In this document: positions 24,598 to 36,180 of the stretch, piece after piece
How the letters are laid out: each line of letters starts with the position of its first letter
Position numbering within the stretch: the first letter of the stretch is position 1
Assembly: GCF_000026545.1 (NCBI RefSeq)
Contig: NC_011601.1
Source of the DNA: Escherichia coli O127:H6 str. E2348/69
Lineage (GTDB): Bacteria; Pseudomonadota; Gammaproteobacteria; Enterobacterales; Enterobacteriaceae
Length of the DNA: 64,000 nucleotides
Direction: 5' to 3' (one strand)
Position numbers and translations under genes: made by a program
Notes under the pieces: generated by a model
Seen by the model: only the letters and a program-made list of their open reading frames with translations
Told to the model about the DNA's origin: nothing
The model's database searches: none

Positions 24598-24631
24598 TGT
24601 TGAGTTTAGAGCAGGCATCGCCCCTCACCCA

Positions 24632-25390
24632 TCACGCCACCCCAATCTCCATCCCATCAAACCCCGCCTCAAACCCCGACGGCAGTGCGTTTTCCATCAG
24701 CCACGCATCAAACTGGTGGTTGATATGGGTCAGAATCACCCGTGGCGAGCGGATAACCTGATTCAGCGCAAGCACGGTATTTAAATCACAGTGATTACGC
24801 GGTGCATCCTCGCGCGGCGGGTGGCTGCAATCAATCACCATTACCTGCGGCTGATTATTGCGTAAAAATTTCAGCGTTTTTTCCGGCAAGCCAGCGGTGT
24901 CAGACAGCCACGCCACCCGGCTGTGTGCCGTTTCCAGCAGATAACCGAAGGTCAGTTTTGAGTGGTTGAGCGGCAGGGGCGTGACCTGTAACCCCTGTAA
25001 ATCAAACACCACAAACGGTTCCATCGTGTGGCTGAAATCAAGCAGGCCCGGATGTTTAAACAGATCGTCGCAGCCCTGTTCATCCGGCGGGCCGTAGACC
25101 GGGATCTGATCGCCCACGCCCCAGCGCAGCGGAAACAGCCCCTGGACGTGATCCATATGATAATGCGTCAGCAAAAACTGCTGGAACGATCCGGGAGACC
25201 AGCGATCGGCGAGATCGTGCAGCCCGGCGTCGATCAGGGTGATCGCCCCGTTAAACTTCACTACGCCGCTGCACGGCTGGCGGCGATACTGCGGTGAGCG
25301 CAGCGCTCTGACGCAGGCTACGCACTCGCAGCCCCATGCCGGAACGCCCTGTGCGCCGCTGGTGCCGGTGAGCGTGAGGGTCAGGCTCAT
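24632..25390 (-). CDS. phnP: Phosphoribosyl 1,2-cyclic phosphate phosphodiesterase (metallo-beta-lactamase fold)
   Basis: Start at MSLTLTLTG (track extends 16 codons); HxHxDH motif (THYHMDH). Confidence 0.9.
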
Positions 25391-25391
25391 A

Positions 25392-25826
25392 TTACAGCGC
25401 CTTGGTGAAGCGGAAGTGGCTCTGCTCGTAGCCTTCACGCAGGTAAAAACGGTGCGCGTCGTGGCGCTTGACGTTGGTGGAAAGCTCGGTCATTTCGGCC
25501 CCAGCCTGGCGGGCTTCTTCTTCTGCCCATGCCAGTAATTTACTGCCGACGTTCAGACCGCGTGCCTGCGGCATCACCACCAGTTCCTGAATTTCGCCGA
25601 TCCAGTTGACATGATGCAGATGAAACTGCAAATGCAGGCCGATCATGCCGACAACCTCGCCATCCAACAGCGCCAGATGGTAGCGCATATTCGGGTCACG
25701 CAGGTTGGCGTTAAAGCCCACGCGAAACGCCTGGTGGTCAAACTCCGCTTGTTTTAGCTCACAAATCAGCGCGTAAACCGCGTCGGTGTCGTACTGCGTT
25801 GCCGGGCGAAGCTCACAAGCAGGCAT
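25392..25826 (-). CDS. phnO: Aminoalkylphosphonate N-acetyltransferase (GNAT)
   Basis: 144 aa GNAT fold in operon position. Confidence 0.9.
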
Positions 25827-26370
25827 GGTGTTTCTCCTTCTGATGAATCAGCGTCAGCAGCGTGTCGACCGACTGGCGCAGGCTGCCGTCATTATTGAGC
25901 GTAAGACAATCCTGAGGAGTATAGCGGGCAGCGCGCGCCAGCCGGGCGTTAATTTCACTGGCATTTTCACGACCACGGTTTTCCAGGCGCTGGCGCAGGA
26001 TCTCTGGCGAAACCTGTAAACAAACGGGCAGCAGCGCCGATTGATAGCGCGCCCGCGCCTGCGGCAGATGGGCGCGTGAGCCGTTGACCACCACGTCAAA
26101 TCCAGCGTGCAGCCAGAGGTCAATCTCGACGCCGACGCCATAATACAGACCGTTAGCGTGCCAGCTTAAGGCCAGAAGGTTCTGCCCCGCGCGGGTAAAA
26201 AACTCCTGCTCGCTCAGGGCGATATGGTTTTCACTTCCGGCGCTGGCGGCGCGCGTGATGTAGCGATGCGCTACCAGTAGCTGAGTTTGTTCCCGCTGGC
26301 GGAGTTCCGTCAACAGACTGTCTTTTCCGGAGCCAGAGGCCCCCATTAACCAAATCAGTTTTCCCGTCAT
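25813..26370 (-). CDS. phnN: Ribose 1,5-bisphosphate phosphokinase
   Basis: P-loop GASGSGKDS; 185 aa. Confidence 0.9.
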
Positions 26371-27506
26371 CAGAACACCCTTTTACCCTGACGCCAAACG
26401 TGGTCGATATGAATGTGGTTGCCCTTGCGATGCGCCAGCACCAGGTCGGCGCGTTTGCCCTCGCCAATCACCCCACGATCCTGGAGATTCAGTGCCTGGG
26501 CCGGGTTTTTGGTCACCAGCCTCACCGCCTGCGGCAGCGTAAAGCGGTTGCTCTGGTCATCGGCCACGCGAAACGCCGCATCCAGCAGGCTGGCGGGGTA
26601 GTAGTCGGAAGAGAGGATATCCAGCAGGCCAAGCTGCGCCAGTTCACTGGCCGCCACGTTGCCGGAGTGCGAACCGCCGCGCACGATATTCGGCGCGCCC
26701 ATCAGTACGTTCATGCCGTGCTTGCGCGAGGCTTCTGCCGCTTCGAATGTGGTAGGAAATTCGGCGATCACGCTGCCAAGCTGATGGGATTGGGCTACGT
26801 GGGCGTGCGTGGCGTCATCGTGGCTGGCGAGCGCAATGTGTCGCGCGCGGCACATTGCGGCGATGGATTCGCGATTCGGCTGTGACCAGCGTGCGGCGAG
26901 CGCCAGTTGCTCCTCTTCGTACTGTTGCATCTGCGCATCGGTGAGCGAGTATTTGCCCTGATAATATTCACGATATTTTTCGCGGTTGGCGAACTGGCGC
27001 TGGCCCGGTGAGTGATCCATCAGCGACACCAGCGTTACCGGTTCGCGCTGTACCAGTTTTTCAAACAGCGGCAGCGTGGTGTGATGCGGCAGTTCGCAGC
27101 GCAGGTGCAGACGGTGCTCGGCACGGTTGACGCCGCGTTTCTGCGTCTCTTCGATGGCGTTGATCATCTTCTCCAGATTCTCCAGCCGATCGCCGCCGTC
27201 GCGTACATCACCAATCGCCACGGCGTCCAGCACGGTGGTGATGCCGCTCGCCACCATCAGCGCGTCGTGGCTGCTCATCGCCGAGTGGGCAGGCCAGTCA
27301 ACTTTCGGGCGCGGGGTGAAGAATTTATCCAGATTATCGGTATGCAGCTCAATCAGCCCCGGTAGCAGCCAGCCGCCTTCGCCGTCCATTGCTTCTGACA
27401 GGTGACTCTGGCTTTCGGCAAAGGCGCGGATTTCGCCGTCCTGCATCTCCAGAGAACCGTGTACCACCTCGTTTTCCAGCACCAGTTTGACGTTATTGAT
27501 AATCAT
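26370..27506 (-). CDS. phnM: Amidohydrolase-family C-P lyase pathway enzyme
   Basis: 378 aa amidohydrolase-family protein. Confidence 0.9.
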
Positions 27507-28183
27507 GAAGAGACTCCCATTGGGTGCAGGCGGTCGGCGACTTGCTCGCGTACGGCTTCGTCATGGAAGATACCGACGATGGCCGCGCCGCGGGCTTTGG
27601 CTTTGCGGATCAGTTCCACTACGGCGGCGCTGTTTTTAGCGTCCAGCGAGGCGGTAGGTTCGTCGAGCAGCAGAATGGGGTAGTCGACGATAAAGCCGCG
27701 GGCGATGTTGACACGCTGTTGTTCGCCGCCGGAGAAGGTCGATGGTGCCAGGTGCCACAGACGTTCCGGCACGTTCAGGCGCGTGAGCAGACGCGCGGCT
27801 TTAGCGGCACAGGCTTCACGCGGTACGCCGGTATCGAGCAGCGGCTGCATCACCACTTCCAGTGCCGAAATACGCGGGATGACGCGCAGAAACTGGCTTA
27901 CCCAGCCGACAGTGGTTTTGCGGATCTCCACCACTTTGCGTGCTGGCGCGGTGACCAGGTCGACCCATTCATCACCGTGTTTGATCTGGATTTGCCCTTC
28001 GTCGGGTAGATAGTTGGCATACAGCGAGCGTAGCAAAGTTGATTTTCCACTGCCGGAATGGCCGTGGAGTACCACGCATTCGCCGGCGTTGACGGTGAGT
28101 GAGGCGCCTTGTAATACAGGCAGGCGCACGCCGTTTTGCTGGTGCAGGATAAAGGTTTTACTGACGTTTTGTACGTTAATCAT
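27503..28183 (-). CDS. phnL: C-P lyase system ATP-binding protein
   Basis: Start at MINVQNVSK (track extends 38 codons through the REP); Walker [10 protein letters not shown]. Confidence 0.88.
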
Positions 28184-28204: not shown

Positions 28205-28289
28205 GTCGGATGCGACGCTGATGCGTCTTATCCGACCTACGGGGAGCGCATTTGTAGGCCGGATAAGGTGTTTACGCCGCATCCGGCAC
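28205..28289. repeat. Pair of REP units between phnL and phnK
   Basis: gtcggatgcgacgc...cttatccgacctac and gtaggccggataagg...gcatccggca motifs. Confidence 0.7.
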
Positions 28290-28293
28290 CGGC

Positions 28294-29052
28294 TCAATTC
28301 TGCAAAACCGATGACACCAGCAACTGGGTATACGGATGGTGTGGGTCGTCGAGCACGCGGTCAGTTAACCCACTCTCCACCACTTTCCCTTGCTTCATTA
28401 CCAGCAAACGGTCCGCCAGCAGACGGGCGACGCCTAAATCGTGGGTGACAATCACTACCGCCAGGTTAAGCTCCATCACCAGACCGCGGAGCAGGTCCAG
28501 CAGGCGCGCCTGTACCGACACATCCAGCCCGCCAGTGGGTTCATCCATAAACACCAGCTTCGGATGCGTCACCAGGTTGCGGGCAATCTGCAAACGTTGC
28601 TGCATGCCGCCGGAAAAGGTGGTCGGCAGGTCGTCGATACGGTTAGCGGGAATCTCCACCTCTTCCAGCCACTTCTGCGCGGTGGCGCGAATATCGCCGT
28701 AATGACGCGCTCCGGTTGCCATCAACCGTTCGCCGATATTGCCGCCTGCCGACACCTGGCGGCGCAGGCCGTCAAGCGGATGCTGATGTACCACACCCCA
28801 TTCGGTGCGCAGCAGGCGACGGCGGTCGGCCTCGCTCATCGCATACAGCGAACGGTTCTCGTAGCGAATTTCCCCTTGCTGTGGCGTCAGGCGGGCGGAA
28901 ATTGATTTCAGTAGCGTGGTCTTCCCGGAACCGGACTCCCCAACAATGCCCAGAACTTCTCCCGGCCATAAATCAAAAGAGACATCGCTGAAACCTTTGC
29001 CCGGGGCATAAAGGTGGGTCAGGTTATTGACCGAAAGTAACGGTTGATTCAT
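28294..29052 (-). CDS. phnK: C-P lyase system ATP-binding protein
   Basis: Start at [11 protein letters not shown]; Walker [10 protein letters not shown]. Confidence 0.9.
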
Positions 29053-29894
29053 TGGCTTTTGGCCTCGCTCTGTTGGCGGCAATAATCGGTATCGGAGCAG
29101 ACAAACATGCGGTTTCCGGCGTCATCCAGCACCACTTCATCAAGATAGCTGTGGGTCGATCCGCAGATGGCGCATGGTTCATCCCACTGCTGGACGGTGA
29201 ACGGATGATCATCGAAATCGAGGCTTTCCACGCGGGTAAACGGTGGCACGGCATAGATGCGCTTCTCGCGCCCCGCGCCAAACAGTTGCAGGGCGGGCAT
29301 CATGTCCATTTTCGGGTTATCGAATTTCGGGATCGGCGACGGGTCCATTACGTAGCGCCCGTTCACCTTCACCGGATAGGCGTAGGTGGTGGCGATATGA
29401 CCGAAGCGGGCGATATCTTCATACAGTTTCACCTGCATCACGCCGTACTCCTCCAGCGCGTGCATGGTGCGCGTTTCCGTCTCTCGCGGCTCAATAAAGC
29501 GCAGCGGTTCGGGGATCGGCACCTGGAAGATAACTATCTGATCTTCGGTCAGCGGCGTTTCGGGTATGCGGTGACGCGTCTGGATAAGTGTCGCATCGTC
29601 CGTGCGCTCGGTGGTGTTCACCCCGGTCACGCGCTTAAAGAAGTTACGAATCGACACGGCGTTGGTGGTGTCGTCTGCGCCCTGGTCAATCACCTTCAAC
29701 ACGTCGCTTTCGCCAATCACGCTGGCGGTGAGCTGAATGCCGCCGGTTCCCCAGCCGTAGGGCATCGGCATCTCGCGTCCGCCAAACGGCACCTGATAAC
29801 CGGGGATTGCCACCGCTTTTAAGATAGCGCGGCGGATCATGCGTTTGGTCTGCTCGTCGAGGTAAGCAAAGTTGTAGCCGCTCAGATTAGCCAT
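29049..29894 (-). CDS. phnJ: Radical-SAM C-P lyase catalytic subunit
   Basis: Start at MANLSGYNFAYLDEQTKRMIRR, 63 codons inside the track ORF; conserved C-terminal cysteine cluster. Confidence 0.9.
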   Translation of the reverse strand: MANLSGYNFAYLDEQTKRMIRRAILKAVAIPGYQVPFGGREMPMPYGWGTGGIQLTASVIGESDVLKVIDQGADDTTNAVSIRNFFKRVTGVNTTERTDDATLIQTRHRIPETPLTEDQIVIFQVPIPEPLRFIEPRETETRTMHALEEYGVMQVKLYEDIARFGHIATTYAYPVKVNGRYVMDPSPIPKFDNPKMDMMPALQLFGAGREKRIYAVPPFTRVESLDFDDHPFTVQQWDEPCAICGSTHSYLDEVVLDDAGNRMFVCSDTDYCRQQSEAKSQ

Positions 29895-30951
29895 GGTTCT
29901 GCTCCTGTTGCAGACGTTTGAGTAGCTCCAGTTCGGCCTGGAAATCGACGTAGTGCGGGAGTTTGAGATGCGAAACAAAGCCTGCGGCTTCGACGTTGTC
30001 GGCATGGGCCAGCACGAACTCTTCATCCTGTGCCGGACCTGTTGCGTACTCGCCGTATTCCGGTGCCTGCAACGCACGGTCAACCAGCGCCATCGCCATT
30101 GCTTTGCGCTCGCTCATGCCGAACACCAGCCCATAGCCGCGTGTAAAATGCGGTGGTTCATCCGGCGGGTCGATAAAACCGTTGACCATTTCACACTCGG
30201 TCATCAACAATTCGCCGACGTTCACCGCAAATCCCAGCTCTTCCGGCACAATAAATATATCGATATAGCCACTGCGAATTTCGCCTGCGAACGGGTGATT
30301 GCGCCCGTAACCGCGTTGGGTGGAGTAGGCCAGCGCCAACAAATAGCCTTCGTCACCGCGCATTAATTGTTGTAGACGGGAAGAACGCGAACAGGGATAA
30401 ACCGGCGGCGTGCGGGTGATGTCGTCCGGTTGTGCGCCGCTATCTTCTTCAAACTTCGCCAGCCCCTGACGCGCCAGCAGGCTGAAGACGTGTGGCGACG
30501 GTTGCTGTTCGCTGTCAGCGGTGGTCAGCGTTGGCGTTTCGCCGTTTGCCAGCAGGGTGAAATCGAGCAGGCGATGGGTGTAGTCGTAGGTGGGGCCAAG
30601 CAGTTGGCCGCCGGGAATGTCTTTATAAATTGCTGAAATACGCCGTTCTAGACGCATCCCGGTGGTGTCGAGCGGCTCACTGACCGCCAGCTTCGCCAGC
30701 GTGGTGCGGTAGGCGCGCAACAGGAAAATCGCTTCGACGTTATCGCCGCTGGCCTGTTTCAGCGCCAGCGCGGCCAGCTCGCGGTCGGCAATACCGCCTT
30801 CGGTCATCACGCGATCTACCGCGAGGTTAAGCTGCTGTTCAATCTGGGCGACGCTCAGTTCAGGCAAATCAGTATCGCCCCGGCGTCGGCTCTCTTGCAG
30901 GGCGTGGGCGGCGTCGATCGCCTTTTCGCCCCCTTTCACGGCAACGTACAT
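29887..30951 (-). CDS. phnI: C-P lyase core complex subunit
   Basis: Start at [10 protein letters not shown] (track begins at an upstream GTG); 8-nt overlap with phnJ. Confidence 0.9.
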   Translation of the reverse strand: MYVAVKGGEKAIDAAHALQESRRRGDTDLPELSVAQIEQQLNLAVDRVMTEGGIADRELAALALKQASGDNVEAIFLLRAYRTTLAKLAVSEPLDTTGMRLERRISAIYKDIPGGQLLGPTYDYTHRLLDFTLLANGETPTLTTADSEQQPSPHVFSLLARQGLAKFEEDSGAQPDDITRTPPVYPCSRSSRLQQLMRGDEGYLLALAYSTQRGYGRNHPFAGEIRSGYIDIFIVPEELGFAVNVGELLMTECEMVNGFIDPPDEPPHFTRGYGLVFGMSERKAMAMALVDRALQAPEYGEYATGPAQDEEFVLAHADNVEAAGFVSHLKLPHYVDFQAELELLKRLQQEQNHG

Positions 30952-31535
30952 CAGCACACCTCCACATGAGTGGTTCGCGGAATAGCCAGCAGGCGCTCGC
31001 CGCAGGTCAGGATCAGGTCGATGCCGAGCGGGAACGGGTGCGGGCGCTCGGTAAGTTCATGAAGAATGCACTTTGGCAGTTGCGGGGCGATCATCCGTTC
31101 TTCGGCAATACCTGCGCCGGTGAGGCGCAACATACGCCCACCGCTCAGGCTGGTGACCTGTAAAATCAGCGTTGCGCCCGCTTCTGGTGCAACGGCAGTG
31201 CCGGTGGAAAGGGCGTTGAGCTGCTCGCTGGAGATCGCCTCATCTGTTACCGCGAAGGTCGCCTGTTTCGGCTGATTAACCAGCGGCGCGTTGGTATGAA
31301 AACGCAGGCTCTGATTGACGATATCGTTGCTCAATGGTGCGGCAAGCCACACCGGCGTGTCGTTATCGGCCAGCGTCAGCAGCACGCTGGTGGTGGCGAT
31401 ATTCAGCGGCTGCCAGCCGCGCTTGAGCTGATGCAGGGCGACAATCACGCCCGGCTCGCTCATGGCCTTTAACAGGCGACGAAAACTGTGCTGGGCATCC
31501 TGCACGGGAAGCATAAAAGCGGTTTCCAGGGTCAT
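30951..31535 (-). CDS. phnH: C-P lyase core complex subunit
   Basis: 194 aa; overlaps phnI start and phnG stop. Confidence 0.9.
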
Positions 31536-31984
31536 GCGTTGTCTCCGCGAACCATCGTAAAGAAGTCGACCCGGCTGGCGTTCACTTCGGCCTGACGCGC
31601 GGCAATGCGTGCCATACGGTTAGCGTCCAGCGGGGCAATAAGGGTTTCTGATAAGTTTTGAAAATGGCGGGTTTGCTGCATCAGCGCGTCAATCAGCGCG
31701 CAGCGTTCGGCGTGCTGTTTGTCGCGCCCCAGTACCCAGCTATAGCCGAGTGTGCCGTCAGTCAGACGCACGGCGGCGCGGGTGAGCGTGGCGTCGCCAG
31801 CAAAAAAGCGTTCGCCGGTGCCGCCCATTCGCGCCTGAATCTGCACCAGGCCAGTTTCAGCGGCGCGGATCACCTCATAATCGGCGTTGATGTTCAGCGC
31901 CTTCAGGCGGGCTGCCAGTTCAGCCGGTTGGCTGTGCGCCAGCACGGACATCCAGTGCTGGCGGGTCGCGGTATCTGCGTGCAT
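31532..31984 (-). CDS. phnG: C-P lyase core complex subunit
   Basis: 150 aa; 4-nt start/stop overlap with phnH. Confidence 0.9.
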
Positions 31985-32730: not shown

Positions 32731-33510
32731 TCAGATAAAGTGCTTACGCAACCGTTGAGAGAGGAAATCCAGCAGGCTGACCGTGACGATGATGAGCACC
32801 ATCAGGGCGCAGGTTTGCTGGAACTGGAAACCGCGAATCGCTTCCCACAGCGTGACGCCAATTCCGCCCGCACCAACCATACCGACGACGGTCGCCGAGC
32901 GGACGTTGGATTCGAAGCGATAGAGAGAGTAGGAGATCAGCAGCGGCATGACCTGCGGTAGTACGCCGTAAAGGATCTCTTCCAGCTTGTTGGCACCGGT
33001 GGCGCAAATGCCCTCCACCGGGCCGGGTTCAATCGCTTCTACCGCTTCGGAAAGCAGTTTGGAAAGTACGCCGGTGGTGTGGATAAACAGCGCCAGCACG
33101 CCAGCGAACGGGCCGAGGCCGACGGCGACCACGAACAGCATGGCGAAGACCATTTCGTTAATGGCGCGGCAGGCGTCCATCAGGCGGCGTACAGGTTGGT
33201 AGACCCACCACGGTACCAGGTTTTCAGCGCTCATCAGGCCGAAGGGGATGGAGAGAACCACCGCCAGCGCGGTGCCCCAGACGGCGATTTGCAGCGTGAC
33301 GGCCATTTCGGTGAGGTAATCCTGCCACTGGCTGAAATCGGGCGGGAAGAAGTCGGCGGCGAACGTCGCCATGTTGCCGCCATCTTTAATCAGCGTAAGC
33401 GGTGCCATTTCCGCGCCCTGCCACGAGACGACCAGCACGGCGATAACAACGGCCCAGCTCAGAAGCGAGAACCAGCTGCGCTTGGGTGGGGCGATGGTGA
33501 TGGTTTGCAT
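32731..33510 (-). CDS. phnE: Phosphonate ABC transporter permease, intact frame
   Basis: Uninterrupted ORF; start at [17 protein letters not shown]; the track's upstream extension ([13 protein letters not shown]) is REP-derived. Confidence 0.85.
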
Positions 33511-33526
33511 GTTTGGCTCCGGTCTG

Positions 33527-33614
33527 TAGGCCGGATAAGGTGCTTGCACCGCATCCGGCATCAACGTCTGCACATTGTCGGATGCGACGCCGGGGCGTCT
33601 TATCCGACCTACGA
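33527..33614. repeat. Pair of REP units between phnD and phnE
   Basis: gtaggccggataagg...gcatccggca and gtcggatgcgacgcc...ttatccgacctac. Confidence 0.7.
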
Positions 33615-33615
33615 T

Positions 33616-34632
33616 TTACTGCACCGCTTTACTCACCGAACTCATTGCGCTTAACGCGTTGTTCAGGCGGTCCAAATCATCCAGTTGCGCCTGAATGGCG
33701 GTGGTTTTTGCCAGCTTGTCCTGTTCGTTCAGCCCTTTGTTGTCCTTCACGCTTTGCATCTCTTTAAACAGTGCGAGCTGGCGAATCGGCACCAGTTGCA
33801 AGTCGCTGGAGGCGCGGAACGGCGCCCAGCCCAGGCGCTCCAGCACCGCTTTCTCTTCCGGCGTTTTGCCGTAATTCATAAAGAAGTCGTAGATCTTGTC
33901 TTTAGTGGTTTCGGACAGATTTTTGCGCCAGACGATCGGATCGCCTGGGATCAGCGGCGATTTCCAGATCACTTTCAGCTCTTTGAGCTTCTCCGGCGCG
34001 GAGGTTTTCAGCTTGTCGAGGTTTTCGGTGTTGTTGGTGGCGACATCCACTTGCTTGTTAGCGACGGCGAGGGCGTTGGTTTCATGCCCGGCGTTGACGG
34101 TGCGCTTAAAGTCGCTGGCGGAGATATTGTTTTTAGCGAAGACGTAGTAGCCGGGGACGAGGAAGCCGGAGGTAGAGTTAGGATCGCCATTGCCGAAGGT
34201 GAGATCTTTCCGCTTCGCCAGCAGATCGTTCAGGTTGTTGATCGGACTATCTTTGTTGACGATCAACACGCTCCAGTAACCCGGCGATCCATCCGCCGCG
34301 ACCGTCTGGGCGAAGACCTGGCCGTTGGCGCGATCCACCGCTTCCATCGCCGACAGGTTGCCGTACCAGGCGATATCCACTTTATTGAAGCGCATCCCCT
34401 GGATAATGCCCGCGTAGTCCGGGGCAAAGAAGGCGTTTACCTTTACGCCCAGCTTCTTCTCCATATCCTGTAAGAACGGCGTCCATTGCGGTTTCAGGTT
34501 TTGCTGTGATTCCGTTGAAATAATGCCGAAATTCAGCGCCTTTTCCTGCTCTTCGGCGTATGCCGGATTTAACAGGGTGCTGAGGCTGAACATGCTGGTG
34601 AAGGCCAGCGAGGCAATTATCTTAGCGTTCAT
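33616..34632 (-). CDS. phnD: Phosphonate periplasmic binding protein
   Basis: 338 aa with signal peptide. Confidence 0.92.
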   Translation of the reverse strand: MNAKIIASLAFTSMFSLSTLLNPAYAEEQEKALNFGIISTESQQNLKPQWTPFLQDMEKKLGVKVNAFFAPDYAGIIQGMRFNKVDIAWYGNLSAMEAVDRANGQVFAQTVAADGSPGYWSVLIVNKDSPINNLNDLLAKRKDLTFGNGDPNSTSGFLVPGYYVFAKNNISASDFKRTVNAGHETNALAVANKQVDVATNNTENLDKLKTSAPEKLKELKVIWKSPLIPGDPIVWRKNLSETTKDKIYDFFMNYGKTPEEKAVLERLGWAPFRASSDLQLVPIRQLALFKEMQSVKDNKGLNEQDKLAKTTAIQAQLDDLDRLNNALSAMSSVSKAVQ

Positions 34633-34656: not shown

Positions 34657-35445
34657 TCAGGCAGCTTTCGCGTTCTCTTCGACGCGGTTAATGCTGCGGT
34701 AGAGATGGTCAAAACGTTCGTTATCAAACTGTTGGCTGCAGCCGTCGTAGAAGACGTGCCCCTGGCGCAGGGCGACGATGCGTTCGCAGTAGCGCAGGGC
34801 GTAATCCACCTGATGCAGCGTGACGACCACGGTAATGCCGTCGTTCTGGTTGATGTCGCGCAGGGTGTCCATCACGATGCGTGCCGATTCCGGGTCCAGC
34901 GAGGCGATGGGTTCGTCAGCGAGAATGACCTTCGCCTGCTGCATCAGCGCGCGGGCAATCGCCACACGCTGTTGCTGGCCGCCGGAGAGTGTGGAAACGC
35001 GTTGATGGGCAAAGTGCACCATGCCAACGCGGGTCAGCGCCTGTAACGCGCGCTGTTTCTGCTCGCGGGTGAAGTAGCTAAAACAGGTTCGCCAGAATGG
35101 CGTGCTGCCGAGCGCGCCAATCAGCACGTTCTCCAGTACGCTCAGGCGATTCACCAGGTTGAATTGTTGAAAGATGTAGCCGGTATGGGCGCGGCTTTTG
35201 CGGATATCGCGGGCCAGACGGCCTTCGCGCTGGACAGTGCGGCCCAGCAGCTCGATATGGCTACCGACAGATTTATCGCCGGTAATCAAACCGCTTAAGT
35301 GACGTAAAAGGGTGGATTTTCCGGAACCCGACGGCCCAAGCAGAGCCACCATTTCACCATGATGAATGTTCAGATCAACCGCGTGCAGCGCCTGATGCTG
35401 ATTGAAGGTTTTGGCGAGCTTCTCGACACGGATAATCGTTTGCAT
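34657..35445 (-). CDS. phnC: Phosphonate ABC transporter ATPase
   Basis: Walker [10 protein letters not shown], signature LSGGQQQR. Confidence 0.92.
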
Positions 35446-35577
35446 GATGCAGCCTCCCTAAAAAAGTGGCTCCATCGTGGCGGATTATTGTGACGATTTG
35501 GTTAATTAAAAGTGACTAACAGATGAAGAGTTAACGGGAATTCGATGACAGTGCGGGAGGGCGGGCCTCCCGGCGGG

Positions 35578-36021
35578 TTATTGCGTTGGCTGTTGTTTGA
35601 TGACATTAATCATCCACGGTACGCCAAATTTATCGGTGACTTTGCCAAAGCCATGCGCCCAGAACGTTCCCTGCCAGGCCATTTCGATTTTTCCGTTGGC
35701 GGCAAGGTTATCAAACCAGCGTTTTCCTTCTTCCACCTGTTGCGAATCGAGCACCAGCGTAAAGCCGGAGTAGCTGGCTTTTCCTGACGGCATGGCATCG
35801 CTCATCATGATGTCGCTTCCGGCAATGCGCACGTTGGCATGCGCGATGGCGGTATCGGGAAATTGCATTCCGGAAGGGCAGTTTTCGGCGCTGTCCTGCG
35901 CTGATTTCGGCATTTCGCCGAAGCTGATTTTATAGAGCAGTTCCGCGCCCAACGTACGTTGATAATAGGCAATCGCGTCGGAACAGTTACCGGCAAAAGA
36001 GAGGTAGGGACTTAACGGCAT
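35578..36021 (-). CDS. yjdN: VOC/glyoxalase-family protein (PhnB-like)
   Basis: 147 aa. Confidence 0.8.
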   Translation of the reverse strand: MPLSPYLSFAGNCSDAIAYYQRTLGAELLYKISFGEMPKSAQDSAENCPSGMQFPDTAIAHANVRIAGSDIMMSDAMPSGKASYSGFTLVLDSQQVEEGKRWFDNLAANGKIEMAWQGTFWAHGFGKVTDKFGVPWMINVIKQQPTQ

Positions 36022-36085
36022 GATGGTGACCTCAGTTAAGAGAAGCCCGTTAAGTGTAGTTCGAAATTTATACAGATGAGAGGGA

Positions 36086-36165
36086 AGCCTGATAAGACGC
36101 GGTCAGCGTCGCATCAGGCAGTCGCCACCGTTGCCGGATGCGGCGCGAGCGCCTTATCCGGCCTA
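36086..36165. repeat. Pair of REP units between yjdN and yjdM
   Basis: gcctgataagacgc...gcatcaggc and gccggatgcggcgc...ccttatccggcctac. Confidence 0.7.
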
Positions 36166-36180
36166 CCGATCACAATACAA

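Follow-up and report, generated by a model that had tools for sequence, protein, structure and literature searches.

The phnE gene of enteropathogenic Escherichia coli O127:H6 str. E2348/69 forms one uninterrupted reading frame of 259 codons without internal stops, and we consider it probable that it is an ordinary in-frame ('ON') allele within a standard 14-gene phnCDEFGHIJKLMNOP C-P lyase operon that is expressed when cells are starved. The gene is located in a 64,000-nucleotide stretch of the chromosome (RefSeq assembly GCF_000026545.1, contig NC_011601.1), which is referred to as the window. In an operon of this type, PhnCDE would import phosphonates (and phosphate), PhnG-M together with PhnP and PhnN would run the C-P lyase pathway, and a Pho-regulated promoter upstream of phnC would drive expression. 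Judging from the open frames, a phosphonate-positive phenotype of E2348/69 is likely; it is likely rather than certain because PhnE, PhnP, and PhnL carry missense changes at conserved sites. The literature searched yielded no data on phosphonate growth or uptake for E2348/69. Neither the allele nor the operon nor the contrast to K-12 goes beyond textbook knowledge, and the annotation of the genes as intact is already public.

The phnE gene of the window was aligned with that of K-12 MG1655. A single gap of 8 nt was observed in a region that was otherwise 97% identical. In MG1655, the aligned repeat consists of three units, GCTGGCGT-GCTGGCGT-GCTGGCGC; where K-12 has three tandem copies of GCTGGCG(T/C), the window has two, at 33090-33105. 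Thus, phnE is in frame in E2348/69 because it contains two 8-bp copies and not the three of K-12, in which the third copy shifts the frame. When translated as annotated, the phnE pseudogene of K-12 stops downstream of the repeat. Removal of one 8-bp copy from the K-12 sequence restored a protein of 259 aa, from which the product of the window differs only by L23I and R169C, and the same length was found for PhnE of BL21 and CFT073. The sequence-only reading of the window had proposed that phnE is a single frame and that the additional 8 bp of K-12 are absent. Both proposals were borne out by the alignment with K-12, which gave two units versus three, and a search for a frameshift or premature stop in phnE on this realignment revealed none. 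PhnE scored 308.4 bits against the NCBIfam equivalog model TIGR01097 (cut-off 216.7), with residues 16-258 covered, and was also matched by the Pfam model BPD_transp_1. RefSeq places phnE of E2348/69 at 32731-33510 (ATG start, 259 aa) and does not flag it as a pseudogene. The integrity of phnE rests on sequence identity and not on chance.

The complete phn operon is located on the minus strand and extends from phnC at 35445 down to phnP at 24632, within the gene order adiC-eptA-basRS-proP-crfC-yjdMN-phn-yjdP-rpiB-als (Table 1). The genes phnC, phnD, and phnE adjoin on one strand. On the reverse strand, positions 20700-45640 of the window are identical to a 24,941-base locus of the E2348/69 chromosome NZ_CP059840.2, which also matched a 941-base query from around phnE at 100%. 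The claim that all of phnC-P are intact was upheld: each of the 14 genes matches its K-12 counterpart in length, starts and ends at proper codons, and is free of internal stops; RefSeq treats none of the 14 as a pseudogene in E2348/69; and 12 of the proteins scored well above the curated NCBIfam equivalog cut-offs, while PhnI and PhnJ scored above those of the Pfam models. The phn proteins are 96-99% identical to those of K-12, and PhnJ differs from its K-12 counterpart only by V103L, I121V, and N280S. In PhnP, residues C21, C23, C26, H76, H78, D80, H143, D164, H200, and H222 are kept, all of which are invariant or near-invariant across 84 orthologue clusters; these positions are reportedly metal-binding or catalytic in the PhnP structure. 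The region upstream of phnC reportedly holds a PhoB-dependent promoter. Since only one of 155 bases in this region differs from K-12, the Pho-regulated promoter is presumably unchanged. The phoBR genes are located outside the window. Two intergenic gaps near the operon differ in size from those in other strains: the gap between yjdN and yjdM (36022-36180) comprises about 160 bp, compared with about 657 bp for K-12 and about 557 bp for BL21, and that between phnP and yjdP (24598-24631) comprises 34 bp versus 146 bp in K-12.

Table 1. Features of the phn locus in the E2348/69 window (positions are those of the window).
Feature	Position	Strand	Observation
phnC upstream region	35446-35600	minus	1/155 bases differs from K-12
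phnC, ABC transporter ATPase, 262 aa	34657-35445	minus	intact
phnD, periplasmic binding protein, 338 aa	33616-34632	minus	intact
Inverted REP pair, phnD-phnE spacer	33526-33612	minus	holds ATG 33561 and GTG 33573
phnE, phosphonate ABC transporter permease	32731-33510	minus	259 aa from ATG to TGA, uninterrupted
Two tandem 8-bp units in phnE	GCTGGCGT 33105-33098, GCTGGCGC 33097-33090	minus	read from the sequence and the MG1655 alignment
phnE codon 169, private change R169C	33004-33006	minus	TGC (Cys); CGC (Arg) in K-12, BL21, CFT073, and other compared strains
phnF, GntR-type regulator, 241 aa	31985-32710	minus	intact
phnG, C-P lyase core	31532-31984	minus	intact
PhnG private changes			N28K, S105T, D122N
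phnH, C-P lyase core	30951-31535	minus	intact
phnI, C-P lyase core	29887-30951	minus	intact
PhnI private change			H302Y
phnJ, C-P lyase core	29049-29894	minus	intact
phnK, ATP-binding subunit	28294-29052	minus	intact
phnL, ATP-binding subunit	27503-28183	minus	intact
PhnL private change	27602-27604	minus	E194K
phnM	26370-27506	minus	intact
PhnM private change			K329R
phnN	25813-26370	minus	intact
phnO	25392-25826	minus	intact
phnP	24632-25390	minus	intact
PhnP private changes	G11S 25358-25360; R30L 25301-25303	minus	G11S, A24V, A27V, R30L, D48G

The operon was compared with two known E. coli versions. The phn(EcoB)/phnE+ operon of E. coli B (BL21) and most natural E. coli has the same order of 14 genes, the same two 8-bp copies, and the same gene lengths, and PhnE of the window is 99.2% identical to the 259-aa protein of BL21. 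Compared to phn(EcoB), the window has R169C in PhnE and further lineage-specific changes in PhnG, PhnI, PhnL, PhnM, and PhnP. In one study, the phnE allele of BL21 was used as the phnE+ donor (PMC6469041). The cryptic phn(EcoK) operon of K-12, which contains the phnE pseudogene b4583, lies at the same locus with the same neighbouring genes and shares the REP pair of the spacer and the region upstream of phnC; it differs by the third GCTGGCGT copy, which shifts the frame of phnE.

The distribution of the repeat states was surveyed among complete E. coli genomes, 5385 of 5426 of which contain the phn operon at a coverage of at least 80%. An 80-nt query with the repeat at its centre, searched in sensitive mode, gave matches in 5394 E. 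coli records. The two-copy in-frame state, scored as at least 90% identity, was assigned to 4383 of these, and every sampled match in this class spanned the length of the query. The three-copy state with the additional 8 bp, scored as the band of 80-90% identity, was assigned to the other 1011 (about 19%; 998 by megablast), and 11 of the 12 matches listed for this class extended over 87 nt against 79 bases of the query. The three-copy group includes many laboratory derivatives of K-12, and also isolates from bovine mastitis, pigeon, and pork as well as NCTC9100, and the phnE OFF allele is therefore not confined to laboratory K-12. Hence, phnE is usually intact in E. coli, namely in roughly four out of five sequenced strains, and the K-12 frameshift is the exception. 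Because 4383 of 5394 records carry two copies, an intact phnE in a strain other than K-12 is the default and no discovery. The contrast to K-12 that had been drawn from the sequence thus reflects a real sequence difference but, given these numbers, not a noteworthy one.

The start codon of phnE differs between annotations. The mechanical list of open reading frames gives phnE as 32731-33573 with a GTG start and 280 aa. The stop codon of phnD (33616-33618) shares the reading frame of phnE, and position 33614, which the sequence-only reading had used as the upper limit of the gene, results from the stop-to-stop frame of phnE opening directly after this codon. Position 33614 was accordingly rejected as the start of phnE, as it is merely the edge of an open frame. 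The K-12 annotation of phnE (839 nt including the 8-bp insertion) begins at the ATG equivalent to 33561, which is located 51 nt upstream of 33510 and within the REP element. As RNA, the REP pair is predicted to form an 87-nt hairpin (-50.6 kcal/mol, z = -5.5 versus shuffles), which encloses this ATG. PhnE orthologues of other genera start at the position of M1 or bear unrelated N-terminal extensions, and a REP-encoded peptide was never found among them. A GGAG ribosome-binding site is located 9-12 nt upstream of ATG 33510. In strain E24377A, a different palindromic element fills the spacer between phnD and phnE, and the homology extends back only 13 nt before ATG 33510. GTG 33573 and ATG 33561 were ruled out as starts by the orthologue N-termini, the hairpin, and the E24377A spacer. 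The orthologue starts, the GGAG motif, and the extent of homology in E24377A agree with the earlier suggestion that the longer N-terminus encoded across the REP element is probably untranslated, and place the true start of phnE at ATG 33510. The spacer itself (33511-33615) is polymorphic in E. coli: E2348/69 and K-12 carry the REP pair, whereas E24377A, like the many E. coli records that matched the 941-base query only from base 120 onwards, carries an unrelated G/C-rich palindromic element. Further REP copies are located in the gap between phnK and phnL (28254-28287) and in that between yjdN and yjdM (36133-36166).

The substitution R169C affects the EAA coupling loop of PhnE (E166-G-I-C-A-T-G-A173 ... 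L184-P185) and is the sole difference between PhnE of the window and that of CFT073. A sequence search returned no structure of PhnE. Residues 125-254 align with residues 80-210 of the type I ABC importer MetI (PDB entries 3DHW and 4YMS are listed for MetI and ArtQ), and the PhnE motif EGIxATGA aligns with EASRAMGA of MetI and EAARSLGM of ArtQ. The fourth position of this motif is Arg in MetI, ArtQ, and most PhnE proteins, whereas PhnE of the window has the atypical Cys; E166, G172, and P185, which are invariant or nearly so in homologues, are kept. A 71-mer containing the TGC codon was found as an exact match in 3 of 5426 complete genomes, all of which are E2348/69 stocks. The exact PhnE protein of E2348/69 occurs on 80 contigs in 167 indexed blocks of a public collection, and R169C was therefore rejected as a sequencing error or a mutation of a laboratory stock and is regarded as an allele of the lineage. 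Residue 169 is Arg or Lys in all 23 orthologues with at least 73% identity, and these close orthologues suggested an invariant, essential residue. This assumption was abandoned: among 57 species with linked C-P lyase operons, Arg or Lys occurs in 47 and Gly, Ala, Ser, or Thr in the other 10, but never Cys. Among single-domain representatives, 27 of 32 have Arg or Lys, and the position varies freely in fused two-domain PhnE. This pattern indicates that Arg at position 169 is strongly preferred, yet not obligatory, small residues being tolerated in some orthologues.

Across the phn proteins of the window, 12 private amino-acid changes were identified (Table 1), private meaning absent from the six strains K-12, BL21(DE3), CFT073, and three complete genomes from among the closest. 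Of the PhnP changes, A24V is common to E. coli C and MS20657. Position 11 of PhnP is Gly in all 84 orthologue clusters and never Ser; across 59 species, Gly was found in 56 and Ala in 3. At position 30, 78 of 84 clusters and 39 of 59 species have Arg, and 3 species have Leu. In PhnL, position 194 is Glu or Gln in 73 of 76 species, and E194K reverses the charge. All private changes other than PhnE R169C, PhnP G11S and R30L, and PhnL E194K occur at variable sites. The exact PhnP protein of E2348/69 was found on 107 contigs and the exact PhnL on 55. The 5' end of phnP (25200-25390) represents a divergent allele that is 90-95% identical to most E. coli; its start is closest to that of MS20657 (98.0%), followed by E. 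coli C and ATCC 8739 (97.4%).

These substitutions allow a reading in which the operon is open throughout but is impaired in the EPEC1 (E2348/69) lineage by PhnE R169C, PhnP G11S and R30L, and PhnL E194K. R169C would weaken the coupling to PhnC and phosphonate use would be reduced or abolished, an early gene decay that is invisible to frame inspection. We regard such an impairment as unlikely. It is favoured by the distribution of the private changes, 4 of 12 of which occur at conserved sites (defined as sites where at least 60% of 57-76 species retain the ancestral residue) versus 2 of 24 for the six other strains of E. coli. In addition, Cys at PhnE 169 and Ser at PhnP 11 never occurred in the sampled orthologues, and within the first 196 nt of phnP all four differences from the nearest allele, that of MS20657, are nonsynonymous (G11S, A27V, R30L, E48G). 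However, the excess at conserved sites was not significant (Fisher two-sided, p = 0.15) and is confounded by the longer branch of the window compared to the controls; the nearest operon outside E2348/69 is 98.8% identical, and the number of private changes is inflated because of this branch length. The surplus at conserved sites is therefore suggestive only. The ratio of private nonsynonymous to synonymous changes over the operon (12/36 = 0.33) is not above that of other B2 strains; as it falls within the range of the six other strains (0.07-0.58), relaxed selection on the operon in the E2348/69 lineage was rejected as a general signal. Furthermore, 10 of 57 species tolerate Gly, Ala, Ser, or Thr at PhnE 169 and fused PhnE proteins many other residues, Ala is tolerated at PhnP 11, and Leu is found at PhnP 30 in three species. 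Neither frameshift nor stop has accumulated, although the alleles are present on 55-107 contigs each.

Alternatively, the in-frame phnE might be one phase of a reversible switch with a two-copy ON state and a three- or one-copy OFF state, in which case the state found on sequencing would depend on the culture used and would not be a fixed property of the strain. The 8-bp copies that remain, which are perfect in all but one position, persist in tandem and would provide a substrate for slipped-strand mispairing, by which phnE could still switch off. For K-12, slippage of this repeat has been documented (Makino 1991 and Iqbal 2004, both cited by PMC6469041), and the 1011 complete-genome records with the three-copy state include natural isolates. 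On the other hand, the two-copy state was found in all three independent assemblies of E2348/69, and the exact in-frame protein occurs on 80 contigs, so that we consider a sequenced state set by culture highly improbable. Such a switch complements an ordinary in-frame allele in a standard operon, which remains the best explanation, and does not replace it.

Little is at stake in the intact phnE as such, which is usual in E. coli and which the public annotation of the E2348/69 genome already shows as intact. In practice, the analysis serves as a check: the gene calls of the window are sound, and phnE starts at ATG 33510 and not within the REP element. It is reasonable to expect that E2348/69 uses phosphonates and takes up phosphate via PhnCDE. 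The point of interest is the changes at conserved sites, PhnE R169C, PhnP G11S and R30L, and PhnL E194K, which may weaken the pathway. If the operon were indeed impaired, the strain would be phosphonate-negative or leaky and would exemplify a second route to crypticity besides the 8-bp slip of K-12. A pathway weakened in this way would caution against inferring function purely from open frames.
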